Shown: piece by piece, positions 29,187 to 63,340 of the stretch
Numbering within the stretch: position 1 is the first letter of the stretch
Layout: each line of letters starts with the position of its first letter
From: Felis catus
Lineage: Eukaryota
Length of the DNA stretch: 64,000 bases
Assembly: GCF_018350175.1 (NCBI RefSeq)
Contig: NC_058368.1
Coordinates: forward strand, 19,656,001-19,720,000
Direction of reading: 5' to 3'
Position numbers and translations under genes: made by a program
Notes under the pieces: generated by a model
The model's database searches: none
Told to the model about the DNA's origin: nothing
Seen by the model: the letters and a program-made list of their open reading frames with translations, nothing else

Positions 29187-29244
29187 ATGCCAGGAGGTCT
29201 GGAGAAGGAGTGTCATCGATGCATTTAGAAAATCGCCAGCAACG
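29187..29244 (+). pseudogene. TMEM272: TMEM272 first coding exon with TAG at codon 14 (29226-29228)
   Basis: ATG CCA GGA GGT CTG GAG AAG GAG TGT CAT CGA TGC ATT TAG AAA ATC GCC AGC AAC G|gtgagt; recalled human MPGGLEKTCHQCISKIASN. Confidence 0.9.
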
Positions 29245-30954
29245 GTGAGTCACAGCCCTGAGAAATGTCCTAGTTTTGAAGGATTTGGGGCTCTGGGATC
29301 CCATGACTTGTTGGTCATGTGATAGAGCCTGTGAACAAGTGACCCATGTGGCTGGTCTGTGCTTGGCTCAGTGTCCTGCCCTCTGCTAGTACCTTCTAGT
29401 TCTCCTCCTTATATATTAACCTTTAGTTTTCTATAGTACGCAGAATGTGTTTTCAATATAATTATGTGTTCAAAAAAATGTTTGCGTGAATGGGGTCACT
29501 GATAACAACCAATATATAATGAGCTGGGAGACATGGCAGGGAGGTGTGGAACAATTGCCTTTGCATTTGGAGTAGCTTTTCCTTGTGCCCACGCACCGTC
29601 TCTCCTCACCAAATTGGACTTTCCCCCCCCACCCCCCACCCCCTGCTGGAGCCCCCTGTGTCCCAAGGGGCTGGACCATGTTACAGAAGGCCCAGGCTGT
29701 ATCATGACATTCGGAATATCCTGAATGCAAGTCCCAAGCTTTGAGTTTCCTTGGGATGAAAGCATTCACCTCATGGTGAGATATGTTGTTTAAGCCTTTC
29801 CACAAGGTTCCCTTTACTCACAGTCTGTAAAATCTTAGAGCAATTCTATCCGGAGGCAGCAGTCAGTAGGCAGAGCAGACTAAGGTGGAGGGGACAATGA
29901 CGGGTGCTTGGCTACAGCGCTATTGACATGTGGATAGCCAGGTACTATCTCCAGCTCCCCACACCCCTTTCCTCGCGGGCTGTCTGGTTCACTGCTGCAT
30001 CCCCACACCTCCAGCAGGGCCTGGCACGTAGTAGGAACACAGCAGCTGTCCGCGGGATGACTAGATGGGTGAATGAATGAACCACCTTCTCCTCTAGCTG
30101 ATGTACCCGGTCCCATCTCATCCTCCTCAAGCACAACCTGACATTTTACTCCCCGGGATGGCTCTGGGGGCCACGGCCCCTTCCTCCACTGGAGCACACC
30201 CACCATGGTGCTGGAGCCTCTGCCCAGAGGCTCTGATGCTCTGGCAGGAATGAAAACACACAGGCAGGTTCGCTGGCCTCCGGAAGAGGCAACGCCTTTG
30301 GTCATAGAACAATAGTTCTATGTTCTCCCGAAGTTCACTCCCACCCCGCCTCTCCACACACATCCCTACCCATTCTTGCAGTGAGAGCCCTGACAGCGAG
30401 GCCAAGTTGTCAAGAGAGGAGGTGTCACTCTCAGGGTTTCCCAGAAAAAGGTGTTTCCACGTTGTGCCGCAAGTCCCCTGGTCTGGGCCATCAGCTCTTC
30501 AAGTGCCCTTGAAGGGCGCTAGAAAGCCTTTGGTTGGCCCTCCTCCACCTGTGGTCTCCTCGATCCCTGAGCTTTCACTTTTTGTTCTGTGAACAACGCT
30601 GTCTTCATCCCGGACCGTGGCAGGACCTCCTGTGTGCTCCCCCATCCCCTGCCTGGTCCCCTCTGCACACGCTCCACACACGGCCAGGGAGGTCTCTCCC
30701 TGCTTGGTGACTCCCCATTCCCGCAGGACTTCAGATCACCCAAAAGATGCTTTGTAAGCTGAGCCTTCCTCACCTTTTGTGTCATCTCTTGCTTTCTGAC
30801 TTGTTACCCTGGAAAATGCAGCCAGACAAAAAACGTCTCAGCTTCCCTGGAAACTAGGCTCCCTTTGTTCCCTGGGGCTCCCCAAAGTGCACCTCTCCAC
30901 CCAGATCTCTCCTATATCCCACCTGCCCTCTTAGGTAAAGATTGGATTGGACAA

Positions 30955-31084
30955 GGGGCGCCTGGGTGGCTCAGTCAGTTAAGCAACTGACTTCAGCTCA
31001 GGTCATGATCTCATGGTTCGTGAGTTCAAGCCCCACATTGGGCTATAGAGCCTGCTTGGGATTCTCTCTGCCCCTTCCTCATTT

Positions 31085-31122
<38 letters not shown>

Positions 31123-31142
31123 TAAATAAACATAAAACAAAA
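30955..31142 (+). mobile_element. Can-SINE
   Basis: SINE consensus; TSD aaagattggattgg. Confidence 0.9.
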
Positions 31143-31401
31143 AGATTGGATTGGGCAAGAATCTCCATTGGAAGAGGAAATTTTGGTGACCCATAGGATG
31201 CTCGCAATGTTTTAGCATCCTTCCATAGACTCTTTATTGGGTAAAAGGGAGAGAAAAAATAGTAATTATGCAGCGGGAAAATTGGGAAACACTTTGAGGT
31301 TCAAGATTAACGTCACCAATGCAGCGATCTGGCCAAGAATGGACAACCTCAATCTAAACACAAAGGGACATCTGACAAATTCAAAGTGAGGAATGTTCTA
31401 T

Positions 31402-31617
31402 TTAAAATTTTTTTAATGTTTATTTATTTTTGAGAGAGAGAGAGAGAGAGTACAAGCAGGGGAGGAGCAGAGAGAGAGGGAGACACAGAATCCGAAGCAG
31501 GCTCCAGGCTCTGAGCTGTCAGCACAGAGCCCGATGCAGGACTCAAACCCACGAACCATGAGCTCATGACCTGAACTAAAGTCAGATGTTTAACCAACTG
31601 AGCCATGCAGGCGCCCC
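31402..31617 (-). mobile_element. Can-SINE
   Basis: SINE consensus in reverse. Confidence 0.9.
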
Positions 31618-34600
31618 TACCTCCCATCTCATATATTCTTTTCCATCAAGTTCACTCTGCTCCCGTACATTTGCTTCCCTGTGCCCTGACACTGGCCTGG
31701 AGGATGAATTTAATATCTGGGAAGCAATGAAATCTTGATGAACGCATGTGCGGTATGTGTGGCCGGCCTCTAGCCATCACAGGATAACTCAATTAAATGC
31801 AATGAGTGTAGTGAACCCAGGTCATTTGCACTTGTCAGGGCATCCTGGGAAGTGCTTTTAGCTCCACACAGAGATAGCAGCTGAAAAGGGGCCAACAAAG
31901 CACAGACTCAGGAGGGACACCGGGAGAGATGGCTTCCAGCCTGCAACTGGACCCAAAGAACTGTGACCCTGGGTGTATGCATCCCCTCAGCGAGGTGGAG
32001 GGAGGCTCACAATACTCAGTGTGCTGAATGTCGAGTGGCAATTTTATTCGACAGTTCTGGCTATGAGAAATAGCACGTTATGTTGTGTTGTGTTATTTTT
32101 AATGTACTTTTTAAAACTTAAAAACTTCTCTCCTTCTGGATGAAATTAATCTGACTTCAGTTTCCTACTTGCCACACTAGCAAGAAAATCAATCTTGAGC
32201 ATTTCAGTCACACAGGAATTCAGTTTGTAGGAGTTGAGGGGGATCCCTCTTTTGGGGGGTTGGAGCAGAGAATGCTTCCCCTCTCTGGACAAGGCCATTA
32301 TTAGCCTATTCAGCCCCCTTGTACAACTTTTAAAAGGGGCTCTCCCGGTAGAGGTAGCTTTAAGGACACACAGCTTAGGAGCAGAAAATGCTTGTCTTGG
32401 AAGAAAGGGCATCATCACTTCCAGACAAGGGGGGTTTCCGCTTTCCCGCACCCAGACCCCTTGTTTCCTGCACAAACCAGGAACCCCCTGTTTCCCCCTG
32501 TTCCCAGCAGCACGCTGTCTTTGCATGGAGCCAGCACTGGCGTCAGGCTTGGGCCATTGGGATCTTTACAAGGCTGGGGGTCTGGTGCCCCCTTCTAGGT
32601 GCTCCCTGTAATTCTCTCTGGAAGCTTCCAGGAAGAGGGCCACCAACCACAGGTTCCATCAAAAACTCCATTTCTCATGGGCTTAGGAGGGCTGCCCTCC
32701 CCCTCTCGCCCCAATGCTCTCCCCATCGGGGCTCCATCCTTTTCCTTTGGGACAGCCCCGTGGAACTGCTGTCCCACACACTGGAAACACCAAGTTGCCA
32801 CCCTTACCGGAGAAAGAGATTCTGACATCTGTCGGCCCAGTCCTTCTTACTAATTCACCCCGTTACATGAACACCTGGAAGCCTTGAACCTTGGGGAAGT
32901 CAAGAATGTGGGCAACGGGGGTGGTTTCAGAAAGTCCTGGGGCTCTGGGCTCACAGATTCCGACACGGTCACCTGGCACGTTAAAGGCAGTGAATTCTGA
33001 ACCAAACACATGTTCTTTCCCAAAAGCTCCCCGTCTTTCTGTCCCTCGCATCTCTGTCAATGCCACCACCATCCTTGTCGCCCGAGCACAGCACTGGAGT
33101 CATTTCCTGTTCCTTTCTTTCCTTCATGCCCACACCTCACTGGTACTCAAGGTCCTGTCACATCTGCACCTTTGGTTGCTCACCAGGCTAGACCACAGCT
33201 CAGCCTCTCCCCTGCTCTCTCTGCCCATCGCCATAGCCCCATCCTTTTTCCAGTGGTTTGACTTTGATTGTGTCACCCCAGCTCCAAATCCTACAAACAA
33301 CTCCCTTTATCTTCCTAATAAAATCCAAATACCCCCTATTCTCAACATCTCCTTCCAACCTCATCTCTCATTCGTCTTGCTCCGAACCACCTTCATTCAG
33401 CTAAACTCGCCGAGCTGCCACTCCCCAAAACGACCGTGAGCGTCTTGTACTTGAATCTTTTGTTTTCTCCAGGGTCTTCCCTTTGACTTGAAAAGCCATC
33501 TGTCCACAGCTCAGCCTTTCAAAACCCTATCCAGCCATTAACACCAGGGCCATATTGCCTTCTCCTGGAAGCGTTCCTCGATTTCCTGGGGACTCTCTTC
33601 CTCTGGGCTGCTTGCTGCTCCGTGCACCACTCGCGGCCTCTGTCACACACACATTTGTTTCACTCCTCGGGTACGCCTCTCATCTCCCTTGTGAGGCTGT
33701 GAGATCTGTGCTGGTGTGGCTCATCGTGGCCATTTTGAATATTGGTAATGAAGTCCATCCCCGTTCAAAGCAGGAAGTGGAAGCAAATGCCACCTCCTGC
33801 AAGCGGCTAGGGGCCATTACCTCCGGGGGTGAGTGGGTAGCTGCAAAACAGGCCAGGTGAGAGGATGCAGCAGGTGCTTACACAGCAGGGGAAGAGGGAC
33901 AGATGGGAAAGACGAGGCAGAGACAGGATGCTGACTGTACCAGAAGTGGCATAGGGGACGGGGTTTGGTGCCTTTACGGATCTAGGGAAGTTGGGAGGGC
34001 AGTTGGGAGAAAAGAGGTCATCGTCCTGCGCCCTTTGTCACTTGCCTGCTGGGCATTGGGTAGTCAGCGGGACCCCTGAAAGGTGGCGTTGCAGAGAAAA
34101 ACTACCTGGTTTTAGTCTCAATTCCTGTGTTGAACTATTCCGCTTGAAGCAAGAGAGCAGGGGATACACTTGCTACTCACGGGAAACAGGCTCTGGAGAT
34201 CCTTGAGAACAACGAAGCTGAGCGCGCCCACTTTTCCCATCAAGATTACCCCTTTTAAAAATGCTTTGAATGCTTCTGGCTGCCTACTTTGACCCACAGC
34301 CGGGCACTCCCTCATCTCTAACCAGCGATGGTGGGAGCAGCGGGGTTAAACCCACTTCAAGGTGTGAGCAAGAACGCTGAGCTGGCTAACTGGGACACTG
34401 CCCTCCTCTTCATAGTCCTCACTAAGTCAGGAGGCAGTTTATTTGTGCTCTTGGCATAAAGAATGGTTTGGCTCCAACCTTCTGATTCTGACGTCCTCCC
34501 ACATTGCTGTAACTCTGGATGACTTTCTCCTTTGGGACTCTCAGTTGATTGAGCTCTGTCACTGAGCTCTTTGCAATGGACTTGATAGAGACTCATTTGA

Positions 34601-36007
34601 TCAGAACCCAGGATGCAGCAGGCTGAGCCACACTGCAACCAGTGCTTAGTAAGCTCAAACGCATCGCAGTATTTATCAGTGGCAGTCACTGCTGTCACAC
34701 TGCCATCCTGGCCCACGCAAGGTCACCAGGGAGCTCAGCCTCTGTTTCAGCTCAGCCCTGATGACCCATGACTGTGGACCCAGCCCCCCCAGGGGGAGAT
34801 CAGGGGAGAGGTGCGGGTTTCTGATCCCTGACTGTGGCGTGGCTGGTCCAAGTGGTAAAGAAGCCCCCGTGCTGTTCACTGCTAATTACTCATCCTGGTG
34901 GAACCCCGCAGCCCCACACCTCACACTGCCCTGAGCAACCAGGCTGTAAGGAAGGCCTGGCAGAAATATCGCCAGCCTAGCTCACATGAAAGATGGCATG
35001 TGGACGGCCTACTTCACCATCTCCGGGGGCCGCTGGTTTCAAACACAGATTCCCAGGTCCTGCCAGTGGGGATTGTGATTTTGTAGCCGGAGTTCTCAGA
35101 GAACCTGAGAATGATGTCTCTGAGGCTGAGTGGGTTTGAGCCTCAGACCCAGACAGTGGTGCTGCAGACAGGGCTGGGGCACAGCCTGACTCCAGGGAGC
35201 TCTAGGTTTAAGACTGTCCCTGCTCAGCTCATCAGAGTCCGTGGGAACCATAGGGCCTCCCTCACAGCTGTTTTTCCAGTTCCCCATTTGATCTCTAGGC
35301 GGGGTCTGAAATCAAAGGGAAGTCACACATCCTTAATAATGATAATAGTGATGATAATGATAATGGCTAACACCCATGTTTATCATGCAGCAGACCTTGT
35401 GTTTCGTGCCTTACATGGGTTATGACACAATCATTTTAGCAGATCTGTTAGCAAAGTCCTATAATTATTATCGTGTTTTAAATGAGATCATTGAACCCTC
35501 AGGGTTCAAGGGCCCTGCAGTTCACACAACCTGCTGTGGGCCTGGAGTGAGATGTGGTCCCCAGTGGTCTGGCTCCAGCTGGAGGCTCACCATGCTCTCC
35601 TCTGGGCTGTCGTTAGGGATGCTCTGGCCCGAGCCTTCTCTCCCTGACTCGCTTGGAGGTAGGAAGCTTGTGCGGCAGGGGCCTCCTCTGGGGCTGCCCC
35701 ACGTCTCTGTGTCACTGAACACAACACCTGGATTACACACATGGCCGGGTGATGCCATCTGTCACAAGCCTGCAGCACACCGAAGGGTTTTCTGGGATGT
35801 CAATCACTTTATCATCCTGCTAACAAGCTCAAGGCCAGAAATAGAGATGGGATGCTTCAGCTTCTTGCTTTCCTACCACTTCCCAGCAAGTAGTTTATTC
35901 CTTGACCTCCACCTTATACCAGGATTTAAAACAGATGTGGCTAGATTTCCTGAAACTCTCTCTTTAACTGGGCACACTGTCAGCAACGCTGTGTCCCCTG
36001 TAGTCAA

Positions 36008-36980
36008 CAGAGCCAGCTACATAATTTGCAAGGCCCGGTTGCAAAATGAAAATGCCGAGCACCTTGTCCAAAAGGCAGGGAAAAAACTCTGTCTAGGGTA
36101 CTGTGCATAAAGCTTTATCCTTTCTTCAGCAACCTCTTTTGATTTGTCATTGTATTTTTTATTTCCTATTTAATGTTGTTTTAAGTAAACAAGAATAAAA
36201 TACACTTCATTAACAATTTTAAATGATTAGCATAAATGTTACCATTCACCTTAATATTGTTTAATGACAGCTATAAATGCAAAGGGCATCTGACTCACAT
36301 GTAGAATCACCAAAATCACACATTCGTGTTACCTAGGTCTTAAGTACTTTGTTTTTGCCAGAAAACAGCAGAAACACTACGCGAAACTACCATGATTATT
36401 TTCATTTTGCTTCTTGATCATGGGTGCTTTTTACCAAAACTCTCTGTGATGAGTGAGGTAGAACTGAATGGCAAAGGAACTAGGAATGGCCCTGACTGTC
36501 CCTTTCCTTGTGTGTCATCATGTTGGCGGGAAACGGCTGGCCACCGAGGGAGGCCACCTGGGGAAGAAAGGAAGTGACAGGATTCCTTGGCCATTTGTGT
36601 TTCTTAGAACACCACGGCCTCTGACTGCCTTTGAGGCAAGTTCTGGTTCAAATGGGAAATGTGGCCCTCAGGGTGGTCAGTGCCCCTGCTTCCTTGTAAT
36701 ATGCTTACCTTGTATTCATTTGGAGTCTTGCTGACACCTCGTGGACCCAGCAAAACTCAAGAACACGGCAGCAAGAGTGGCAGACACGCGTGGCACGTAT
36801 CTTCTCACACGCAGGCTCGACTGTCCCATTAGACTACGCTTGCAAAATACAAGTTCAAAGATAAATTCATTAAGAAATTCAAGACAGCAGCAGGAGAGCG
36901 TTAAGCCAAATGCAATTTCCCCCCAAGCACAGGGCGCCGTGTCACTGCACGGGCTGCACATCCGTGAAAAGCCAGCTCTG
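36008..36980. mobile_element. MER45-family (hAT-Tip100) non-autonomous DNA transposon, about 970 bp
   Basis: Imperfect terminal inverted repeats CAGAGCCAGCT...AGCCAGCTCTG; subterminal acataatttgcaaggccc...gcaaaatgaaaatg; degenerate 8-bp TSD gtagtcaa / gtgggcag. Confidence 0.75.
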
Positions 36981-37279
36981 GTGGGCAGTGTTACACTCAT
37001 TCAGGGAGGGGCAGTTTGAAGGCAGGAGTGAACATCCGGGCAGATCACTCCGCATGCCTGTCATCCTCCACATTTCCTGGAGGTGAAGGTCAAGATTGAT
37101 TGGCAGGAAGGGGACGGGCAGGACCCTGCTCTTCCGGGGCGTGTAGTAGTGGAGTTTCCGGTTTGGTGGGGTGAGTCTCAGCAATTTTCTCCTCCTAGAC
37201 GACTGGGATTCACAAGTCAACCTGTGGTCTTTGACAATCCGAAACTGGAATGGGCCTTGTAGATGAAACTAATTACAGA

Positions 37280-37690
37280 GGGTTCAGTGTAAGTAAGAGA
37301 AAATCCAACTCAAACTGGCTTAAATAATACAGAGGATCTATTGGTTCATATCAAGGGAAAGTCCAGAAATAGGTTAGCTTCATGGGTGTGTGATTCAGTG
37401 GGTGACAAATGCCTTTGAAGACCTAGTTTCTTCTTGCCTCTCCTTTTTGCCTTCCACGTGTCATTCTCAGGCTGCCTCCCCTTCATGGTGGCAAGATGGC
37501 GGCCAACAGCCCTTAGAGCACAGCGCTGGCACACCAGTGTCGAGGGAGGGAGAGAAATCGTATTTTTCGAAGTTCTGTCTGAAGAGTGAGAAGGCTTTTC
37601 TTTCTTTCTTTTTTTTTTTTCTCCCCTTGGGTATGCTGGGCTCAAAATGAATCATGAGCTTATCCACCAGATAATAACATACCCAATGAG
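37280..37690 (-). mobile_element. Old MLT1-family LTR fragment
   Basis: agaaaatccaactcaaactggcttaaata...ttggttcat...tggtggcaagatggc. Confidence 0.6.
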
Positions 37691-38856
37691 AACTACTCTG
37701 CTGATTAACTTAGGGCTAAACTTCATGCCCTTCTCCAAAGTCCATGGTGGAGTCAGCTTGTGCCAGAGCACATGAACTGCATAGGAGAATGGGGATGTGG
37801 ACAGGTGCGGAGACCAAAAGAAAAATTGGGGTGATTGCCTAGAGAGGAAGGAGAGAATGCTCAGAAGGCTACCATGATATCCACTCAGAGATTCTGTCTC
37901 TGCTCTCGGGGCTGGCATTGGAACCTAGCGGGATGTGTAATGCTGTCTAAACTTTAAAAGCAGGGACTGGGGTGTAGGCCTACCCAAAAGGCATTCAAAT
38001 TCATAATTAACAAAAAAGATGTCTAAACAAAACCTGTATGTGCAAGCCATTCAACAGATGGGGAAACCAAGAAGTAACAAGGGGAAAGAGTTGCCTGATC
38101 ATAATAGTGGCCGTAAACTGAGCTGGGGTGTGCGTCCGCTAATGCATTTTACAGAAGAGGAATGTGAGACCCCAGAAGGCCATCTAATCTTCCCGAAGCC
38201 ACACGACGAATGAGTGACGGAGCCAGGACTGGACCCAGGCTGTGTCTCCGTCCCTTCCCAATGCCAAGAGGGCGAAACGGTGGTACAAACAGGAAGCAAA
38301 GCCCCAAGCAGTTAAGAGCTCTCTTCCACTGTGTGTCAGTGAGAAGTTTTAGGAGACCATCTCGTATCATATTCTGTGGGACGTGGGGCCAAATGAATGG
38401 AAAGGGAAAAAGACTTCGTGAAGCAAATTCTGGAAGTGATAAATCAGGTTGTCAGCGAATCTGAGGCAGGGAAGGGAAGAACCATCTGCAGCAGGTCTGG
38501 GCTCCCAGGAAGCACAGGGCTGATCCTGCCTGGCTCAGCGCATGCCGGTGGCTTCTGGCTTCCTGGCACTGGCAGAGCAGCAGTTTATAAACTCCTTTCC
38601 TAGAAGCTGTCAGACTTTAGAGAGGTGGTACAGGAAATGTGGGTCTTAGAGTCGGCAGCACGAGCATCAGAGACATTCAGCTCTCTCAGAGAGGCAAGTC
38701 CTGGCTTGCACCTCCCCCCTTCTCGTTGAGTGACCTCCTGCCATCTGCCGACTTGCCAGAAGGTTGGGCCTCGCAGATGCGTAAGGAAATCGCAGCGCGA
38801 AGGCAAGGAAAGGGTCTGTGTGTTTCCAACCCAGCGCCCGCTCCTCCTCCTTGCCC

Positions 38857-38921
38857 CCTGCTTTGCTTTTGTGCTCTTTGCTGTCCTGATGCTGCCGCTC
38901 TCCTCTCCGCGGCCTTCGCGG
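38857..38921 (+). pseudogene. TMEM272: TMEM272 second coding exon (first hydrophobic segment); acceptor missing, 5-nt duplication
   Basis: CC TGC TTT GCT TTT GTG CTC TTT GCT GTC CTG ATG CTG CCG CTC TCC [TCTCC] GCG GCC TTC GCG G|gtaag. Length is 65 nt against 60 expected. It is preceded by ctcctccttgcCC where ttgcAG is expected. Confidence 0.8.
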
Positions 38922-39076
38922 GTAAGCTGGCTGCTGAGCGCCACTGATCAGCCACGTGCGGCCGTGGGACAGCGACCTTCATCTTTAAACATAAAATGCG
39001 GGATAGACAGATCCGGCCAGACGGGTGATTCAAATAGCATAGTAGCTGTAGTAGAATTATTTGGTGAACATTTTGT

Positions 39077-39280
39077 TTTTAAAAAATGTTTATTTATTTT
39101 GAGGGAAAGAGCATGTGCACAAACTGGGGAGGGGCAGAGAGAGATGGAGACGGAGACAGAGACAGAGAGTGCCAAGCAGGCTCTGCACTGGTAGCACTCA
39201 ACCTCACAAAACCGTGGGATCGTGACCAGAGTGGAAACCAAGAGTCGACACTTAACAAACCAAGTCACCCAGGCGCCCCT
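39077..39280 (-). mobile_element. Can-SINE
   Basis: SINE in reverse; flanked by atttggtgaac / attcggtgaac. Confidence 0.9.
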
Positions 39281-39983
39281 ATTCGGTGAACGAACGTTTT
39301 TTAAAAAAAGAGTCCTGGGCCCCACCCTGGGAGATATTGATGCAATGTGTCCAGGGTGGGGATCCATACCTGCTTTTAAAAAATCTGTCACCAGGTGATT
39401 CTGGTGCCTGTGGACCAGGTTGGGGGCCACTGGGTGAGAGGGTTTCCCAGGGCCGCTCTCCACCTCCTGTGTTCCCATGTGGAAGCCTGTCATGAGCAGT
39501 ATGAAAATGCTATGGTAACATGTAGGTGCTCTGTACATTTCTCTTGCTGAACATACGGATAAATACTTCCATAAGTCACATGTATTAAATGACCTCAATT
39601 ATGTCAAAGCGTGAAGTGTTGAGGGAGTGGGGAGCTCCTTACGTAGCTAAAAATGATTGTCATGTGTCAGTGGAATTAAACTCATGCTCCGGAATGTTGC
39701 TAATGGAGGCCCTGAACTCTGTACACAGAACCTAGCCAGTCCTATTTCAATAGAGACCTAGAAAGCCTGGTGTTCTAGTTTCCAAGTTCACAGCATATTG
39801 GAGTAGAAATGAAAAGGGCATAGGTGTTGTTGAGTAAAACCCCAGTACCCTAATTGCTTAATGGGAATGAGGTTTCCCTTTGGGGTGATGACAATATTTT
39901 GGAACTAGATAGAGGTGGCAGTTATACAACTTTGTGAATACATTCAATGCCACTGAATACTTCACTTGAAAATGGTTAATTTT

Positions 39984-40181
39984 AGGGGCGCCTGGGTGGC
40001 TCAGTCAGTTAAACATCCGACTTGGTTTTGGCTCAAGTCATGATCTCTTGGTTCGTGAGATCGAGCCCCAAGTAGGGCTCTGTGCTGACAGTGCAGAGCC
40101 TGCTTGGAATTCTCTCTCTTCTCTCTGCCCCTCCCTCACTCTCATGCACATTCTCTCTTTCTCAAAATAAAATATAATTTA

Positions 40182-40224
<43 letters not shown>

Positions 40225-40225
40225 A
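39984..40225 (+). mobile_element. Can-SINE with (TAAA)n tail, inside an L1 3' fragment
   Basis: SINE consensus; L1 tail motif at 39858-39983. Confidence 0.9.
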
Positions 40226-40320
40226 TGCAATGGTTCATTTTATGTGCAGTTCACTCAGCAAAAAAAAAGCAGCAATACTAAAAAACAAAAAAAAAACTAA
40301 TACAAAATAGTACTCTTAAA

Positions 40321-40775
40321 ATTTTTTTTTTTAATTTTTTTTTTCAACTTTTTTTAATTTATATTTTGGGACAGAGAGAGACAGAGCATGAACGGGGGAG
40401 GGGCAGAGAGAGAGGGAGACACAGAATCGGAAACAGGCTCCAGGCTCCGAGCCATCAGCCCAGAGCCCGACGCGGGGCTCGAACTCACGGACCGCGAGAT
40501 CGTGACCTGGCTGAAGTCGGACGCTTAACCGACTGCGCCACCCAGGCGCCCCTCTTAAAATTTTTTTTAATGTTTATTCATTTTTGAGAGAGAGAGAGAG
40601 AGAGAGAGCGCAAGCAGGGGAGGGGAAGAGAGAGAGGGAGTCACAGAATCGGAAGCAGGCTCCAGGCTCTGAGCTGTCAGCACAGAGACTGATGCGGGGC
40701 TCAAACTCATGAACCTCAAGATCATGACCTAAGCCGAAGTCAGTTGCTTAACTGACTGAGCCACTCAGGCACCCC
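40321..40775 (-). mobile_element. Nested Can-SINEs: young copy (40321-40552) inserted at the tail of an older copy (40553-40775)
   Basis: Inner TSD TCTTAAAATTTTTTTT; outer TSD AAAATAGTACTCTTAAA. Confidence 0.9.
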
Positions 40776-40880
40776 AAAATAGTACTCTTAAATTTGTGAC
40801 AAGTGAAAGTTGACAGCTTGTTGGGAAATAAAAGAAATAAAACTCTAAAGTTTGTACAGAACTAAAATAGCCGAGAAGTT

Positions 40881-41132
40881 AGGTGCCTGGGTGGCTCAGT
40901 CTTCGGCTCCAGTCATGATCTCATGATTTGTGAGCTCGAGCCCTGCATCAGGAGAGCTTGAACCCCATTTTGGGTGATCTCTGCTTCTGTCTCTGTCCTC
41001 TTTCTCTCTCTCTGCCCTCCGTGGGGTTCTCTACCTCTTCTCTGTTTCTCTCCACCCCTCAGGGGATTGTCTCTCTCTCCCTCTCTCTCTGCCTCTCACT
41101 CACTTGTGCCCTCTCAAAAATAAAAAATAAAA
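40881..41132 (+). mobile_element. Can-SINE (older variant)
   Basis: SINE head and tail; TSD taaaatagc(c/t)gagaagt. Confidence 0.85.
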
Positions 41133-41687
41133 TAGCTGAGAAGTCTGGGGCCATTTGGTGGAAGAGTAGATGATTCAACCAATTCAATAGGCCCTAAAGC
41201 TGTCATTATTACAGTGTAGTTCAAAATAAACATTTATTATATGGCTCTGCTCTATCAGGAAGACTTTTTAAGATGTTAGGTATCCCCTGCTTAGGAATCC
41301 AGGAGTATCCTTAAAAAAAAAAAAAAACAAGTCCTGTGAAAAATCTATCAACTGAAAGATTTTTATTGAGTTAAAAAAAAAAAAAAAAAAGCTTTTGGAG
41401 CCTGTGGTTTAGTTATCTGGAAAATGAGCTTAACTGGAATAGTTCATTCACTAACAAGGCTGTTTAAATGAAGCAAGAACCTATAAGGCCAGTTCCCAGA
41501 GACATTATGCTAAAATCACTACATTCGCTGCCGGAAGAAAGTATTGGGGAATCACTGCTCCGTGGTTATGAGTTTCTGTTTGGGGTGTTGAAAAAGTTTT
41601 GGAACTAGGGAGTGGTGATGGATGCACAAGATTGCGAACGTAATTAGTGCCACTGAATTGTAATGTTTAAGAATGGTTACAATGGTA

Positions 41688-41902
41688 GGGGTGCCTGGGT
41701 GGCTCAGTCAGTTAAGCACTGACTTCAGCTCAGGTCATGATCTCGTGGTCCGTGAGTTCAACCCCCGTGTCTGGCTCTGTGCTGACAGCTTGGGAGTCTG
41801 GAGCCTGCTTTAGATTCTGTGTCTCCCCCTCTTTCTGTCCCTCCCCAGCTTGCCCTCTGTCTCTCTTTCTCAAAAATAAATAAACATTAAAAGAATTTTT
41901 TT
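41688..41902 (+). mobile_element. Can-SINE inside an L1 3' fragment
   Basis: TSD aatggttacaatgg. Confidence 0.9.
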
Positions 41903-43109
41903 TAATGGTTACAATGGCAAAATACTTTATATTATCACAATAATACGTGTAAAAAATAATCATTAAAACCCCATGATATGGGCCCCTCCAAAAAGCCTCA
42001 AGAGAATCATTGTGATACTGCTCGTCAGACAGAAAGAACATCTAGAGGTAAAGTAGGTAGGTACTAAGCAATACGTGAAGAACACAAGGGGAAAGACGCT
42101 TTTATTAAATTTATTAGGATCCTTTTAAGCCATCTGTGCACTGTGTGACCCTCCTGTGAGCAGCAGCTGTTTTTATTCATTAGGAATGAACAGATATAGA
42201 AGTCATTACTCAATGTTCATCTCGCAGCTGGGTTTGAATTGAAAGGCAGTTCATATCCAACAACTTTGGCCCCAAGCATTTAAAGGTCCTTGTGTGAAAA
42301 GGTTGTATCGAGACTTGGAAAGTATTTCATCTAGTAGTAGATTCAGCTGAACATCAGAGCTATCTAGGAAGGCAAGCCTCCATAGGTTGACAATTGCAGC
42401 AATGTGCGTATTTGATTTTGCTCTGGGGTCCTGAATTTGTGGGTCTCTGTATACCCAGGAATTTTTATTAATTTCAGTGGAATATGGTATCATCATGGGG
42501 AAATGGCTTATTTCCTCTAAGTACCCATGCCTCTAATGCATTCATAGGAAATAAAAATCAAACCGAAGCTAAAACTTTAAATGTCATTTTAACAGAAGAC
42601 TTTGATTTTAGAGTGAGCATCCCGTTTCTTGGGCTCTATTGACAAACATATTGGTCAGGGTAACTTTACTATGTTGTGGTAATAAATTAACCCCGGAATC
42701 TCAACACTATGAAGCGGCTCAACACTATGGTTTATTTCTTGCTCATGAACGTTCCGTTGAAAGTCAGGAGCCTCTCCAGGGTTCCAGAAGACTCCCCCAG
42801 GGTAATGTGATGACTTCACACTCCAAATGACTTCATTCTTGCTCACGGACTATCTCAACCCATGGATTCCAGGTGGTCAAAGCAGGGGAACAAAACAAAG
42901 GGCCACATGCCAGTTTTTAAATGCTTTGGCCCCATACTGTCCCACAGCCCATTGGTTAGAAGTAGTCACACAGCATTGGCTACCCACCAGGGGGCTGGGA
43001 AGTGTGAGGGACGTTCACTGAGCAATGTCTGTGCACAGCCAAGATGTGTGCTAGGACACATCCAAAGCCTGGTCATTTGAGCCAGATTGGTCACTGAGGG
43101 CAATGGGCA

Positions 43110-43163
43110 TACATATATATATATATATGTGTATATATATACATATATATGTATATATATATG

Positions 43164-43198
<35 letters not shown>

Positions 43199-43213
43199 GT
43201 ATGTATACATATA
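43110..43213. repeat. (TA)n/(TG)n mixed microsatellite
   Basis: Direct reading. Confidence 0.9.
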
Positions 43214-43219
43214 TTAGGT

Positions 43220-43449
43220 TTTTTTTCAAAAAATTTAAAAATGTTTATTTATTTTTTAGAGAGAGAGAGAGACAGACAGAGCGTGAGCAGGGGAGGGGCA
43301 GAGAGAGAGGGAGACACAGAATCTGAAGCAGGCTCCAGGCTCTGAGCTGTCAGCATAGAGCCCGATGTGGGACTCGAACCCACAAACCGCGAGATCATGA
43401 CCTGAGCCAAAGTCAGACGCTTAACTGATTGAGCCACTCAGGCACCCCC
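43220..43449 (-). mobile_element. Can-SINE
   Basis: SINE consensus in reverse. Confidence 0.9.
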
Positions 43450-43829
43450 TTTCATATATTTTAAATAATATACCATACCACCACTAGTTCAATAATAGGC
43501 CTAGAAGACAGAGGCTGGAGAAAAGAAGAGAAGGCATTGCTATGGGAATTAAAATTGCCACTAAGAAAGGGTACAGTCGGTTAATACCCAGACAAAGTGA
43601 TATCTGGTCCCTGCTCTACCTGACGTCTGGGAGACAGCCACTTAGTCCCCTGAGCATCCTGAAGATCAGGTGGCCAGTGAGACTGGGCATGCTCCACAAG
43701 CAGGGGATTGGGTAACAGTTTCCATGAGGAGCATTTGGGCCTCTGCAGAAGTCTACTGCATCTTCCCAGCTGGCTTTATGCTTTTGAATGCACTTCTCTT
43801 CATCCTTTTTCATTCTCTCCCCTCTGTAG

Positions 43830-43912
43830 GGATGAAGTTTTTGGAGGGCTGCCGCATACAGACCCTCATCCCTCTCTATTTGCTAGCGGGTGGGATCATT
43901 GGAGCCTTAAAG
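43830..43912 (+). pseudogene. TMEM272: TMEM272 third coding exon; donor reads AT instead of GT
   Basis: ctctgtag|GG ATG AAG TTT TTG GAG GGC TGC ... GCC TTA AAG|atgaagtc; recalled human GMKFLEDCPIQPLIPLYLLVGGIVGTLK. Confidence 0.9.
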
Positions 43913-45821
43913 ATGAAGTCTATTTATCCACTGTTTAGTTTTTGCACAAATTTAACTTACAGGCACGTGACACACAGCCTTCAATTGTCTGCTACTCACA
44001 GAGGAGCCAGAACAGCTCCCCTCCCTAAGCACAGGGTTATGGAAGCAGTGGGGCAAGGTGGATCCTGAAGTCTGCTTGCAGAGACATGGGTTTTTCCTGA
44101 TGAGGAGCATTCGCCCAGAGCTGGGCATCTTTGCAGTAGCCTCCCTCCCGCCGCCCTGAGAGCAATGTGCTAATTTGTGGCTTGGGTCTGACAACAGTTG
44201 AAGCAGAGGAGTGGCTGACTGCCAATTAATTCTACCTTTGAATTGAGCCGGCGTTATCTTGGCCTCTCTCTGCTTCTTTTTAGAAAGGTTCCTGTGGAGG
44301 GCAGTGGAGTTTGCATCTGGTTGAAATGTATTTGGTTTTAGCAGCTCTTATTTCTGTGTTTCTCCTAGCGCTCAACCGACCGGCAGAGAGACCACTAGCT
44401 GCAGTCATCAATCAGACGTTAAACTCTGATGTTTCAGGGGAGGAGGGGCTTCTCTGTGACTCTCAAGTTCATGTTAGTGTAGGGAGCCGATCTGCTCCTG
44501 GGTTGTACTGACATCTGTTTTAACAGGAAAAGTGACAGAAGAAAAAAACATCAAGGGTCCTGGAGAGTCTACAGGTGTCAAAATCCCTGGCCCACAGAAA
44601 TGTCCCACCTGTCCAAAGCACCTCAGGTCTAAGGTATCTTAGGTCCACATCCATTCATCAGTGACCCTTCCCAACCGTCCAAGCCGCCCTCAAAGCTTCC
44701 TGTATCAAAAGCTAGAAAACACAAGCACCCGTTTTTCCAAAATGGTTGCATAGAGATGAAGCACAGAAGAAAACCATCAGGAGTGCCATATATAAAATTT
44801 CATTTGGACGCACTGTCTGATTTCTTTGCCAGCATCTTTGCGGTGCTTGGGGCCTTCTGAAGATGCTGGCCAGTGGCATCAGTCAGGATATTGGTTAGGA
44901 CATCAAAGGAGTGTCTTGCTGTTCTATGTAATCAGCAGTCACCAGCTCAAGTCATGGGAAGCAGGTCTGAACCTTTTGTGTCTGAGGTTATGTCACCATT
45001 AAATGCCCTCAACTCCTAATAGCAGTGCAGGGGCAGTGTTCTGGAATGTGCAATAACACGCGTTCCCCCTCCCCCCCCCCGTGACAACATCCCCAGGGGA
45101 TCAGCTGGGACTCTGTTTGGCTCCAAGTAAACCCAGAGGCTCTCTGCTCAGTGGGGCTTCTTATCCCCTGTGGCCCCGTGGTATGAGGAGAAAAGCCCTA
45201 ATGGACCGAGCGCCATAGAGATGTTCAAAACAAGGGCAACGTTTTCAGCAGTAATTACCTCTGCTCAGCCCTCCCTCACTTGGCTACCTCATCATCAGGC
45301 CGTGAAGTGAAACTTTCCTGCGGAGATGTTACCGTCCATGGGGTCTGTTCCTCTTAACAACGGCAAACTTTTCCTTTATGAAATCCGGCCCAGAACCCAA
45401 AGGTAATTTATTTTAATGAACAAACTAGGGCCCTGATAAACAGCACTGATTTTTTTTTCCTGGCAATCTAGAACTGTTTGCAGCCAAATTAAATTTTTGT
45501 GCTCATCGTAGCGAGGTAATACACAGTGAGTCCGTAACTGTTAGAGAGCAACAGCAAACAGATTTATAGAATCCCTAGATGGAGAAGTTTGCCGGTGATA
45601 CCAATGCTCTGTCTTTAACCCTCTCGGAACACTGCGCCACAGTGCCCAGCATCCTTTCTGAAATGCAGCAATAGCACCACGGTATTGCATCTTGTTGACG
45701 AGAAAGCAGAGCATCAGTGAGTGGACATTTCCCAGGGTCCCCAAAAAGAACTGAGTCATGACCCACTGGAAGATCATGAAGTGAATTTAGTAGGTTGTGA
45801 CCATTAAACAAAATGGAATAG

Positions 45822-46028
45822 AGGGACTCCTGGGTGGCTCAGTCGGTTCAGCGTCTGACTGTTGATTTCGGCTTAGGTCACGGTCTCAACGGTTCATGGG
45901 ACCGAGCCCCACGTCGGACTCTGCGCTGACAGCGCAAAGCCTGCTTGGGATTCTCTCTCTCCCTCTCTGTGCCCCTCCCTCACCTGTGCTCGCACGCTCT
46001 CTCTCTCTAAATAAACATTAAAAAAAAT
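45822..46028 (+). mobile_element. Can-SINE
   Basis: SINE consensus. Confidence 0.9.
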
Positions 46029-46094
46029 AGAATAGAAAATACTAGAGTGCCCAGTAAGCATGGTGTGATAAACACATACACGTGTGTTTGGGCA

Positions 46095-46217
46095 TATGAG
46101 CCATATAATTTAATCCAAATCGGGACACTTTTGAGAGTACACAGGGGCTTTAATAATCATGCCAGGAAAACCCCGTAAACCAGGACTCTGAGCCAACAAG
46201 GATACACACGGTCCCCC
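46095..46217. mobile_element. MER94-like hAT-Blackjack MITE
   Basis: ccatataatttaatccaaatcgggacacttttgagagt...taataat...taaaccaggact. Confidence 0.65.
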
Positions 46218-47399
46218 AATTACTAGGTTGTGATGTAAAAGGTATTTGTTACTGAGGACCATGTTAAAAAGAAAGTTTCAGAAACACTGATTTAGTGGCC
46301 ATTAACCTACCTAATGCCCCACCTCACCCCCAATATCCCACTGCTCAGTGATCATTTCTACCACCCAGTGAGTGCTTACTATGTGCCAGGTGAGGTGCTA
46401 AGGGCTTTGCCCCATTTGGAACCTAGTCCTCACGATACCCCTTCGAGGCAGGTACTTGTATCAGAAAGGAGTTTTGAATACAAGGAACAAAAAATCGGGA
46501 GGAAAGGCCCCCACGGCATCCAGAACCTACCAGGCCTGTGACGTGGCCTGGAGGTAGCAGGAAAGTCTGCTGGGGTCCGCCCTTTACGAGGCAGGGGGCC
46601 TGTTGTGCAGCCCTCTAATCAGGACCAGGTACTCGTGTTATAAAGTCGTGTGGTGGAAGGGTGCGGGGACAGTCGAAGGAAAATCTGTACGCCTGGCTTC
46701 CAGGCATAACTGCATAGCACAGTGACTTGCCGGGGGTGAGAAGACAGGAGGACCACAGGGCAGGGCAAAGGCACCCCTGAGGCACGAGCCACATGTTGTG
46801 ACTGCGCAAAGTCATGAGCAAGAGGGCAGGTGAACCAAACACAGCTGGACCCTGTCTCTTCTTTCTCGTGGGGAAGAATCACTAGAGGTGCATCCAGCAT
46901 GGTAGCTATTGATTGGTTACAGCAGATGAGGAGCAGGGAGGCTCCCGGGTTTCTAGCTTGGACAGTGTCACCCAAATGAGAGGCATATGGAAGGTAACGA
47001 GTTATGTCTTCAACATACTGAGCCGAGGGCCTGGGGGCACTCGGGGGAGCCTCACACGTGTCCGAGGTCTGGAGGAAAGTTCCGGAAGGGAGCCGCAGAC
47101 CAGGGCGCCATCAGCCTATAGGTGGGTGAGGTCAGGGCCTGGGCCATATTTGTGAGGGTCACCAAAGAGGGAAGCTACTGAAAGAGGCCAAGAGAGAGAA
47201 TGGCTTGGTGGAAAGGAAGCCAGCTTTGGCTGAAGACAGACCTGGTGCCTGGATCTTCCACTTTTTGTACACATGACCTTGGCCGAAATTCTTAAACGTC
47301 CTGGTCCTCAGCTCCTTTGTTTCTAAAGTGAGGAAAGTAATGTACGCTTCCATAGGGTTGTTTTAAATAAGACAACCTGCCTAAAAATAAAAGCACTTT

Positions 47400-47622
47400 G
47401 GGGCACCTGGGTGGCTCAGTCGGTTAAGCGTCCAACTTCCGCTCAGGTCATGATCTCGCGGTCTGTGGGTTCGAGCCCCGCGTCGGGCTCTGTGCTGACA
47501 GCTCAGAGCCTGGAGCCTGTTTCAGATTCTGTGTCTCCCTCTCTCTCTGACCCTCCCCCATTCATGCTCTGTCTCTCTCTGTCTCAAAAATAAATAAACG
47601 TTAAAAAAAAATTTTAAAAAAA
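47400..47622 (+). mobile_element. Can-SINE
   Basis: Near-consensus copy; TSD aaaagcactt. Confidence 0.95.
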
Positions 47623-48149
47623 AGCACTTAGTATCTGTCTTAGCTCAGGCTGCCGTTGACAAGATGCCACAGACCAAGTTGCTTCCATAACAGACATTCA
47701 GTAGGGAGAGGGAGGAGGACACTTTCAGATGACGACCATATGCAGGTTTGCAGTCATGGGAGGATGGGGAGCAGGTCACTGGAACCAGGAAGGCCAGGGA
47801 TGACCTCAAGGATGATGAAACAAACCAGAGCAGCAGCGACACTCTGGGTGTGGACATATATTCCAGTCAACTAATCCCTTGTCCAAAGCAGCTCACACAT
47901 CAAAATAGAAAATGCCACCAAGGATGCTGACTAAGGATTGATGCCTTCATTCTTGCCAGTTCTGATTCTTCAAAATTAAATTTCACTCCTTGGCGGCATT
48001 TCCAACTCTAGTGTGGGCACTTTGCGCATTAAATCTCCCTCTCTCTCTGTTTCTCTCTTGGCTTCTATTCCCTCTCCTCCACCTGCTTTGCTGCCTTGCC
48101 CTCTGACCCCCCCAACCCCCCCTCCCACCGCCCGCCAGCCACAACCCAG

Positions 48150-48516
48150 GTGTCTCTCCTGCTGCATGACTCTACCAGGATGAGGCGGCTTGTGCCAAGG
48201 CCGTGGTGATTAACAACCAACCAGGACGATGATGCATATCCCTGGAGGCAGACCGTGTGCAAGTATTATATCCACCTCAGCCTCAGCCTCTTCCTTTTCC
48301 TCTGGTTCCTTTCGGGGAATTACGGGGCCCTCTCCGTTTACCTGCCTGATTTTATTCCCCCTTTCCAGCAGCCTCAAGCTTACTGTGACAAAACCCTGTA
48401 TCCCTGTGCGGTAGGGAGTCCTCGTGCTCAGCCACACCATGCTGGTCCTGCTCATCCTGTGCAGTGGGCGTGTCTATGTGTGGTCCAGGTGGAGATTCGT
48501 TGTCGATGGAGACTGA
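48150..48516 (+). pseudogene. TMEM272: TMEM272 last coding exon with three frameshifting indels and an in-frame TGA
   Basis: cccag|GTG TCT CTC CTG CTG CAT GAC... A -1 near 48195 exposes TGA at 48207-48209; a +1 near 48217 restores the frame; a +1 near 48414-48417 shifts off the tail VLVLSHTMLVLLILCSGRVYVWSRWRFVVDGD*, whose TGA is at 48514-48516. Confidence 0.9.
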
Positions 48517-51225
48517 GAATCACCCCCTCCGGCACACACAGGCACACATTTGCGCATGCACAACTCCACACACTCACATGCACACACGCGCACGTATATG
48601 CAAACACGCACCCACGCACACCCTGCACACTCATGCACAATTGCAAGAGGAGGGCACACTGTAGAGCAATAAGACGTCCCTCCAGGCAGTGAAGAAACCA
48701 CCAAAATGCACTGCGTGTTTATTCTAGGCAGACTAAAGGAGCGCTTGCCTCCCTGGGCCTGGGGGAAGCCCTGTGGTTCTTTCCAGAGTGGGACTTTTGT
48801 ACTCATGAGTTTGCAGAGGCATCTTTTTATGTGAGGGGATGAGGCGAGGGAGGCAAAGACTGGGAGGCTCTTTCCAGCTACAGGCAGTTCCAATGACCGT
48901 CACAAGAGCAAGTTTCGCTGCTGTTACTGTTGCTACTGCCGTGTTGTCATCCAGCCACGGGCAACCTGAAATTGTAGAAAGGGATATCTTCCCAACAAGA
49001 CCTAGCTCAGCTTCACTTGGGTGGCTTTGTTATGAACAGGAGAAAGGTGCTCTGTTTAATGACTCCAGGTGTCTTTTGGGAAAGAGCTCTCTTTCCCAGC
49101 CCCAAATCAGACGGGTTTGATTGGACCGGTAAGGGCATCCCAAGGGCAGCTATAAAGGCTGCCAAAGTCAAGGAAGGCAGTGCCCCTGGGGCTCCGGTCT
49201 GGCCCATGAGCCTGGCGTCACGGAGGGTAGCGTGCCCTCCCCGTGTGCCTTGGGGTAGTCCTACTGCAAATTCTTTGCTTGGCCTGAGTCCGCTTCTTTC
49301 CCTGGCCATCTGTGTCCATCTCTGTAATGTGCTCCTGGCACAAACCAGTTTCGTGTAGGTTTTGGCCAGATTGCACGTGGAGTCGTTAATGCAGGTGTTT
49401 TGGGGTTTTTTTTTTTTTTTTTTTTTTTTGGTCTCTGAGTTTAAATACTCTACAGTAGCAAATCTACTTGATGTCAGGTTAGGGCTGGGCAGGCTTTTGC
49501 AAATCCATTTGTCTGGAAGTTCAGGATGACACCGAAGAGCAAACACTAACATCCCTCCCGTTGCTGTCGTTAGGGGTGAAGTTCCTGAGAGCTGGGGTAC
49601 CAGGCCATGCGGTGCCGTCAGCGGGGGGAGCACCGATGCTTTAGAATCTTGGGTGAAGACTCTGTCGTGTGTGTTTCTAGGGGCAGTGCCCGCCCAGGGG
49701 GACAGTGGCCCCTTCGTAGTTGTGCTTCTGTTGCAGCACGTGCACAGCCTCTGTATGTTACCTGGTGCCTAGCTACTGCTTGCTTTTGAGGCAGGGGGTG
49801 GGGGTGGGGGGGTGCTTTGTAAGAAGACCAACCCCAAAGTGGCCATCCGTGTGGCCTCCTCTCCCTGCTTCCAGAGAAAAGGACCTAGGAGTTCACGGTG
49901 AGTTTGGGCATCTGTCACCTGCTGTTACATTTGGTCCAGGTTCCTCCCAGGTCGGAAGAAGGTGCTGGAAGCGCCCTCTGCTGGGCCAAGGGCAGAAAGC
50001 CCTTAACTTTGCCCCTACCCCTCTGGGACTTTGCTGTTTTCATCTTCGCCCGAGCCTTGCAAGATTAGAGGGTGTACGACTCGAAGTTCCTGCCATCATC
50101 TGGGATGCCCGAAGTCACTCTCATTGTGCCCCACATCACCTTCTCCATGCCGGGGGCTCCGACACTAGAGCAGGCAAGGTGTTCCATGGGCGCCCCCTTC
50201 CACCCTGCCTGCCTTAGGTGATGACTCACCAGTCACTCCCAGTCGCTTAGCTACTGTTTGGACACAAATGAACAAAGCCAGCAGAGCCCATTTGTAAGCT
50301 CAATCCAGGCCACACGTCAACCATCACTTCACTTAGCATCTCTGACACAAACTCCTGAGCAGGGCTTGGAAAGAGTGTCCAAAAAAGTAAACCAAGCCTA
50401 CACAGGTGAAGCCAGACTCTGTACTCGCGGAGGAGAATGGCCTGGCAGCCCTCTGCAGAGGCAGGCTCCCCAAGTGCACAGGGACCACACCGCCGGCTCA
50501 GGCACGCCAGAGCCTAGGATGGCAAACAGATTTGTTCTCTCCCGCTAGCTCCCATCCCGGCTGTGCGTTGTGTTGGGAATGACCCTGAGGATCTGAGACT
50601 CAACAAGGAGGTGTGAGGGGACCCATACAGTCCCACTGGGGGTGACCCTGGGGTTCTGGGGACCTGGCAAATGGAGGTTCTCCCACTCACATCTCAGCAC
50701 GGTCCTCACCTCGTAGTGATGCATTGTGCCCTTGTGAGTGACTCACAGGAGTCTGGCCATGGACAGGCCACGACAAGGGCTCCTTGTCACTGACTCCTCT
50801 TCATCTGCGGGCACTGAGGACCTAAGCCCGTGCACCCACAGTCCTGCCACACACATGCTTCTGAGATGTTGTTGCTGGGGCCTGGGCAAAGGTGGAAAGA
50901 GCTTGCAAAAAAAAAAAATCTTTTTAAAAATCATAAACTTGCTGTTAGACTGCAGATATTGGCTAGTGCTTTGGGTACCCCTGTAGCCAGGTCCCAGATG
51001 CTGGCGATTCCCAGTTTCTGATAGGCATGACTATCCCCGGAGTGTCACAGAAATCGCTGTGTTGGTATACACGATGACTTAACAAATATGCTTGAGAAAG
51101 TGGCAACTTATCCCCGTTCCTAGAAATAGCTTGGTAGAAGAATTTATTTCCTCCTTTCATTCCATTCCCTATATTTATATCTTGTTTCACAATGAATTTG
51201 GAGGGTCTTTAAATGCTGTATTTGA

Positions 51226-63150: not shown

Positions 63151-63186
63151 AGAGGTGGTTTTTATCTTAGAATTAATTAGAGAAAC

Positions 63187-63340
63187 GCGGTGGTTCTCAA
63201 TCCTGGCCGAATAATAGGGCAAGAATCTAAAATACCAGCGTCAGGCCCTGCCCCTAGAGATTCCAGTTCGGTTGGCCTGCACTGGGGCCTAGACTGACAT
63301 TTTATAAATATCCTCCAGGTGATTCTCATGCCGCCCAGTT
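63187..63340. mobile_element. MER5A-like hAT MITE fragment
   Basis: gtggttctcaa...cccctagagattc...ccaggtgattctcatg; similar remnants near 39300-39435 and 63900-64000. Confidence 0.6.

Follow-up and report, generated by a model that had tools for sequence, protein, structure and literature searches.

The 64,000-nucleotide stretch of domestic cat DNA considered here (Felis catus, assembly GCF_018350175.1, contig NC_058368.1, positions 19,656,001 to 19,720,000 of the forward strand; hereafter the window) carries what is left of TMEM272, the gene for transmembrane protein 272. The four coding exons follow one another in order on the + strand, with correct phases, and none is free of lesion. Seven lesions were found: one nonsense codon, the loss of two splice sites and four frameshifting indels. 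Judging from these letters, cat TMEM272 is very probably a unitary pseudogene at its ancestral locus. The exon remnants and the two dead splice sites are as follows.

29187-29244, + strand: remnant of TMEM272 exon 1, 58 nucleotides (nt), phase 1 (tblastn E 4e-6, 84% identity)
38855-38856, + strand: exon-2 acceptor site, CC in place of AG
38857-38921, + strand: remnant of TMEM272 exon 2, 65 nt where 60 are expected
43830-43912, + strand: remnant of TMEM272 exon 3, 83 nt (tblastn E 6e-12), acceptor AG intact
43913-43914, + strand: exon-3 donor site, AT in place of GT (AAG/ATGAAG, the slash marking the exon boundary)
48150-48516, + strand: remnant of TMEM272 exon 4 (tblastn E 1.7e-44), acceptor intact

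The remnants were located by comparing intact orthologs of 187 amino acids (aa) from marmot (P0052), camel (P0054) and human (isoform X1, P0053) with the window by tblastn. Lesion details come from three-frame views and base-level checks, and lesions and indels were placed by protein-to-DNA comparison with the orthologs. Ortholog DNA was compared for exon 3 only, using one contig of a distant vertebrate (L004). An earlier note on this DNA, written from the letters alone, had described four exons in syntenic order and compatible phase, seven lesions, and a disruption in every coding exon. This description holds: the tblastn pieces are ordered on the + strand with correct phases, the base-level checks bore out the kinds and order of the lesions, the end of the gene at 48516 coincides with its stop codon, and each of the four exons has at least one lesion.

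Exon 1 retains its ATG and reads MPGGLEKECHRCI, then a stop, then KIASN; 16 of the 19 residues are identical to those of marmot. The stop is a TAG at 29226-29228, that is, at codon 14, which specifies Ser14 in the orthologs. The exon-1 donor, GTGAGT at 29245, is intact.

Exon 2 is expected to start with CC TGC TTT (Ala-Cys-Phe). The sea lion and desman models read through the exon-2 boundary and have Ala-Ala-Cys at this point, whereas the cat has Ala-Pro-Cys. The Ala (GCx) of these models, as against Pro (CCC) in the cat, indicates that the G of the acceptor became a C. Further into the exon, TCTCC is tandemly duplicated (38899-38903 and 38904-38908). The duplication shifts the frame by +2, and the reading passes at this point from frame f0 (CFAFVLFAVLMLPLS) to frame f2 (AAFAG). 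The donor, GTAAGC, is intact. The match of exon 2 to the marmot protein is weak (E 0.43 over 15 aa), but the sea lion model aligns across 52 residues with E 1.5e-9.

In exon 3 the cat carries the replacements D46G, P48R and P51T, P48 being invariant in a 19-sequence alignment. The same 83-nt exon is found in the distant vertebrate contig, bounded by cag/ upstream and by /GTAATG downstream. This contig is the sole locus recovered in a metagenome scan for carnivore host contigs and has no DNA similarity to the window.

Exon 4 has lost one G at 48194/48195, after RMRRLV; the frame then reads PRPW and meets a TGA at 48207-48209. Beyond the deletion the homologous AKAVVINN is found in frame f2, until an extra C at 48218 brings the homology back to f0. 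A further extra base at 48416/48417 moves it to f1, in which VLVLSHTMLV...VVDGD continues up to the ancestral stop, a TGA at 48514-48516. Read in the restored frame, exon 4 is 69-71% identical to intact orthologs over 90 aa. The conserved motifs CP.QPLIPLYL and GNYWVFSVY appear as CRIQTLIPLYL and GNYGALSVY in the cat. An uninterrupted open reading frame (ORF) of about 187 aa is lacking in the cat copy, in which all exons are interrupted.

Two further observations concern exons 1 and 2. A CAG lies 22 nt upstream of the dead exon-2 acceptor, and its use would make an exon of 87 nt (38833-38921). Together with the 5-nt duplication, this option places exons 1 and 3 in frame across an unrelated peptide (APAPPPCPLLCFCALCCPDAAALLSAAFA). 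The frame is a coincidence of +22 and +5, and the other lesions are not rescued by it. The alternative first exon of the sea lion model (MTGAWLQQYWRVDSHKVGP) aligns at 29897-29953, inside intron 1, with 63% identity and a stop in the cat.

The intact gene is readily recognised in other vertebrates. With the exon-4 frame as query, a full HMMER scan returned 35 relatives at E <= 0.001, and the desman protein, used in a word-indexed search, returned 61 at E <= 1e-10 among 206 candidates. The relatives bear the source name transmembrane protein 272. The canonical protein of 187-188 aa is present in shark, gar, bichir, coelacanth, lungfish, caecilians, newt, squamates and birds, and among mammals in echidna, bilby, manatee, sengi, camel, squirrels, lemurs and monkeys. 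In the 19-sequence alignment the consensus is MPGGLEKACHxCISKIASN / ACF...LPLSMAFT for exons 1-2 and GMKFLEDCPIQPLIPLYLLVGGIxGxLK / VSLLLYDSTRMRRLL...ED for exons 3-4, and across canonical orthologs 70-74 columns of exons 3-4 are near-invariant. Inspection of the sequence by eye suggests four hydrophobic stretches. The ancestral gene, as reconstructed from this comparison, is one for a 187-aa membrane protein encoded by four coding exons of 58, 60, 83 and 363 nt. Pfam holds no family for intact TMEM272, the felid models, the cat remnants or the CCDC70-like ORF described below. The portions of the literature retrieved with the gene symbol and the full name describe neither a function nor a loss of TMEM272. 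Nor is the gene mentioned in the supplements (9 files) of Hecker et al. 2019, who screened herbivores and carnivores for lost genes.

The three introns of cat TMEM272 measure 9612, 4908 and 4237 bases, and the exons span 19.3 kb. Four of the six splice sites are canonical and stand at conserved phases. Six-frame searches of the whole assembly (2.43 Gb in 71 contigs) were made with the tiger model (P0004) and the intact camel protein (P0054). All matches with E < 0.01 fall within the window; each search scored its best candidates only (9 of 9), so that a very diverged copy could escape. Four further matches have E values of 0.1-4. One of them is exon 1 of the window itself (80% identity, with the TAG); the other three lie outside, at 34-37% identity and with stops, and a second TMEM272 copy was not found. 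Since the introns are retained, the cat copy is a unitary pseudogene and not a retrocopy; the latter was rejected on the three introns, the parental locus and the presence of a single locus in the assembly. The earlier note had argued for unitary loss from the retained introns and the orthologous locus and had called for a genome-wide check for an intact paralog. The check has now been run, with significant matches in the window only, and the argument stands. Several SINE-like elements (short interspersed elements) with GA-rich tails are present in introns 1-3, an (AT/AC)-rich microsatellite block occupies 43080-43250 in intron 2, and a CA/CACG-rich tract (48520-48640) follows immediately upon the TMEM272 stop.

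The loss appears to be shared with other felids. The cluster of the tiger model contains ten felid models from NCBI: Panthera tigris, P. uncia and P. onca, Neofelis, Lynx canadensis and L. rufus, Puma, Leopardus and two Prionailurus. All ten are flagged LOW QUALITY PROTEIN, are 148 aa long, start at the exon-3 Met and lack exons 1-2. The Ensembl-derived lion model passes from ...YCDKTLYPRAVG directly into SPRAQPHHAGPAHP (SPRAQPHH), the same out-of-frame reading as in the cat, which indicates that the lion genome has the same shift at the same codon. This +1 shift in exon 4, together with the ten flagged models without exons 1-2, supports the suggestion of the earlier note that the loss is fairly old. 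We infer that the TAG, the acceptor loss and the duplication are likewise common to felids, solely because exons 1-2 are missing from all felid models. A search for other felid translations over exon 2, with the open frame of the cat as query, scored none of 10 candidates.

The exon-3 lesions appear to have a different history. The ten felid models splice ALK/VSLLL and retain P48, and a felid-like ORF from Logan (P0001) reads GALKVKSIY, i.e., it has GTG at the exon-3 donor. Since other felids have the Val (GTG) donor and P48, the change of GT to AT and P48R appear to have arisen on the lineage leading to the cat. The LOW QUALITY flag is found on the meerkat model as well. There ...GALK is followed by Leu and then by sequence resembling that of intron 3, which points to a separate loss of the donor in meerkat. 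Felids and meerkat share L82V, S83A, N101T, H103C and V126A, and W125 is replaced in both.

Ensembl-derived proteins exist for the cat (200 aa; UniRef, P0002) and the lion (216 aa). The cat model consists of three pieces, each matching the window at 100%. Both models begin in intron 2, use a non-GT donor and skip the frameshifted stretch that holds the -1/+1 pair. Their last hydrophobic segment is out of frame and is followed by a 43-aa 3' piece (48838-48966). They look like annotation artefacts that keep the ORF open.

Relaxation of constraint was assessed at conserved columns of exons 3-4, defined as those identical in all but at most one of 24 canonical reference sequences, with the references themselves scored leave-one-out. 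The 24 references have 0-5 mismatches at 70-74 such columns (median 2). The cat read-through, with X at each break, has 13 mismatches at 69 near-invariant columns. Tiger, Canada lynx, puma and fishing cat have 11-12 of 70, and meerkat 23 of 67. A maximum likelihood (ML) tree, rooted at the midpoint, was built from 42 of the 45 rows; horse, sloth and dugong were left out for non-homologous stretches. The feliform clade is supported at 98/95, and only the branch lengths of this tree were used, its topology being unreliable (pig groups with macaque). Expressed as changes per column, the stem leading to feliforms measures about 0.11 and that of felids 0.092; branches within felids are 0.008-0.015, and the end branch of the cat is 0.067. 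The median end branch is 0.08, and those of marmot, camel, human and macaque are 0-0.05. The long feliform and felid stems, set against the short felid crown, suggest that constraint was lost well before that crown.

The neighbourhood of the gene was also considered. Upstream of TMEM272 the window contains the following feature.

130-825, - strand: presumed CCDC70 neighbour, an intact 232-codon ORF for a W/E/K-rich coiled coil

The ORF has repeated (E/K)(E/K)KAFW-like units and lies 28 kb upstream of exon 1, head-to-head with TMEM272. It is presumed to be CCDC70, an identity that no search has confirmed; an exact look-up in the protein collection did not return it. The only ESM Atlas match of this ORF, to a bacterial cluster with a score of 0.76, was rejected as noise. 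DHRS12 was not found among the ATG ORFs at 62.6-64 kb or by a crude screen for short-chain dehydrogenase/reductase (SDR) motifs over 49-64 kb and a further 30 kb downstream. The segment 62000-64000 is G+C-rich (0.58 in 62001-64000) and has long open frames on both strands, in which a coding exon was not recognised; it may be a CpG-island promoter belonging to the gene that follows, perhaps DHRS12. A table in a Cornish Rex cat paper (2024) gives the order ATP7B, CCDC70, TMEM272, DHRS12, WDFY2 on cat chromosome A1 at 18.5-23.6 Mb, an interval with which the position of the window (19.66-19.72 Mb) agrees. A primate preprint gives TMEM272 the same neighbours as that table. Gene order and coordinates agree with the orthologous locus proposed in the earlier note; the flanking genes are less secure, CCDC70 being presumed and DHRS12 not having been found in the window or by the crude screen of the 30 kb downstream.

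We propose the following course of decay. On the feliform stem, purifying selection on TMEM272 had probably weakened already, and perhaps it had done so throughout Carnivora. Inactivation would have preceded the split between big and small cats, and later lesions, such as those of the exon-3 donor and P48R, would have accumulated on the cat lineage through neutral decay. Any transcript of the present cat gene would end its reading at codon 14. Exon 2 would be unspliceable at its old acceptor and is frameshifted besides, and exon 3 would be unspliceable at its old donor. With three frameshifts and an early TGA in exon 4, no TMEM272 protein would be expected from the cat locus.

Several points weigh against this interpretation. 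The Ensembl-derived proteins of cat and lion are one of them. Another is that the Cornish Rex table counts cat TMEM272 as protein-coding. The felid rows in the protein comparison are annotator-corrected models, which may hide or distort changes, and the sharing of the exon 1-2 lesions among felids is inferred from the absence of these exons in such models, not from felid DNA. Constraint was judged from protein proxies, and the indels were placed by protein alignment. In favour of the lesions being real, 14 DNA runs from eight studies, all bearing the same organism label, contain 0.98-0.99 of 494 sampled 31-mers from 43700-48600; this support is indirect, the runs being assembled contigs of which 13 carry a mark as possible sources, and word shares do not resolve single sites. 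The broken models of other felid species carry more weight in this respect.

Of the alternatives, the one that survives best is compatible with the pseudogene interpretation: the pseudogene may be transcribed and serve in a non-coding capacity, whether retained or newly acquired. Six RNA-labelled runs hold 6-66% of the sampled words (three of them 49-66%), and, as noted, four of six splice sites are intact. The words in the RNA runs are mostly intronic, so that DNA carry-over or pre-mRNA would fit equally well, and they are not evidence of expression. A conserved RNA feature was not seen, none having been searched for. We consider such a role unlikely.

It is decidedly less plausible that a shortened or alternative protein is still made, either NCBI's form of 148 aa, which begins at Met41, or Ensembl's form of 200 aa. 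Annotation pipelines have indeed produced felid models of these forms, the ATG at 43832 is retained, and the protein-coding entry in the cat paper's table is in keeping with them. However, the cat ORF that starts at Met41 runs past the dead donor into intron 3, and a spliced form would meet the -1 deletion and the TGA at 48207. A start at Met41 drops the first hydrophobic segment, and the invariant P48 is replaced. Moreover, every NCBI felid model bears the low-quality flag, and in the Ensembl models it is transmembrane segment 4 that is out of frame.

We give slightly less credence again to a recent loss private to the domestic-cat lineage, with the gene still functional in other felids. This would account for the lesions specific to the cat (the exon-3 donor GT to AT, P48R) and for its longer end branch (0.067 versus 0.008-0.015). 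It is contradicted by the exon-4 frameshift reading common to cat and lion, by the ten models from seven genera, all of low quality and truncated at the N-terminus, and by the 11-12 replacements at near-invariant sites common to felids. Assembly or sequencing error in an animal whose gene is intact, considered improbable in the earlier note too, is the hardest to credit: some indels do lie in short, error-prone repeats (TCTCC TCTCC, AACC AACC, GGG), but the seven lesions fall into four kinds, and three of them are substitutions (two at splice sites, one nonsense), the lion model has the same shifted frame in another species and another assembly, ten of ten other felid models are of low quality and without exons 1-2, the 14 runs carry 98-99% of the sampled words over exons 3-4, and the cat has its 13 replacements at near-invariant positions.

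With the cat gene taken as a unitary pseudogene, the question arises of how far the decay extends beyond felids. Among caniforms, mismatches at near-invariant columns number 8-10 of 70 in three otariids, 10 of 70 in otter and 7 of 68 in panda. None of the caniform models (P0079, P0107, P0108, P0090, P0092) has the canonical 187 aa, their lengths being 139-230. In three of the five families of caniform models exon 1 or exons 1-2 are avoided, and the otariid models avoid the canonical exon 1. The ML branch lengths are 0.15 for the otariid stem, 0.36 for otter and 0.29 for panda. The 7-10 mismatches of caniforms suggest that constraint may be relaxed across Carnivora. High counts also occur outside this order, in pig (8), peccary (7), sloth (6), jerboa (13) and horse (15, owing in part to a poor model), and the models of humpback whale and dugong carry LOW QUALITY flags. 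A tentative proposal, whose chances we put somewhat below even, is that purifying selection on TMEM272 was lost across Carnivora and independently in pigs and peccaries, horse, jerboa and sloth. Against a Carnivora-wide loss, the panda model keeps four exons in frame (182 aa), so that a single inactivating event in the carnivoran ancestor is without support. A lesion shared by caniforms and feliforms was not seen among the protein models compared, and a dog TMEM272 protein was recovered in none of the searches. In addition, the caniform models may be poor, the comparison being made at the protein level.

A Logan ORF of 253 aa (P0009, on a contig of 8550 bases) belongs to the TMEM272 ortholog of another, more distant mammal and covers exon 4 together with the last part of intron 3. 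It switches between coding and non-coding frames at sites unlike those of the cat and looks like an independently broken copy.

The loss of TMEM272 is an ordinary kind of result, such as genome-wide loss screens yield in large numbers. It is implicitly recorded through the NCBI LOW QUALITY flags, and genome-wide loss tables such as those of TOGA may already list it. Its immediate use is as an annotation correction: felid TMEM272 is carried as protein-coding or as a low quality protein, and figures in candidate-gene lists, though unable to make the protein. The felid catalogue also gains a clean unitary loss with several lesions, and species without TMEM272 may help to find its function. Of all this, only the apparent relaxation of constraint among carnivores may be worth pursuing. 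Should it be true, Carnivora would be natural knockouts that could reveal the role of an uncharacterised four-pass membrane protein.

Compared with intact vertebrate TMEM272 (marmot, camel, human and coelacanth, P0070), the cat copy has the same four coding exons, in the same order and phases and apparently in the same neighbourhood. It differs by the stop at codon 14, the loss of two splice sites, the four frameshifting indels and the 13 replacements at 69 near-invariant columns. The LOW QUALITY felid and meerkat models of NCBI represent the same locus product as in the cat. They share N101T, H103C, V126A and F152R/C with it and likewise need frame correction. The felid models splice exon 3 to exon 4 and have P48, whereas in the cat the donor is lost and residue 48 is R. 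These models conceal the lesions, and none of the annotations examined carries a pseudogene label. A processed pseudogene is likewise non-functional; cat TMEM272 differs from it by its introns, its parental locus and the lack of a second copy. A classical felid unitary pseudogene is TAS1R2, the sweet-taste receptor gene, whose loss has a known phenotype and a dietary rationale. TMEM272, unlike TAS1R2, is a gene without known function, so that its loss has no interpretable phenotype as yet. In other respects the two are alike: both stand at the ancestral locus, keep their introns and are broken by indels and stops, and the loss of TMEM272, like that of TAS1R2, appears to be common to Felidae.

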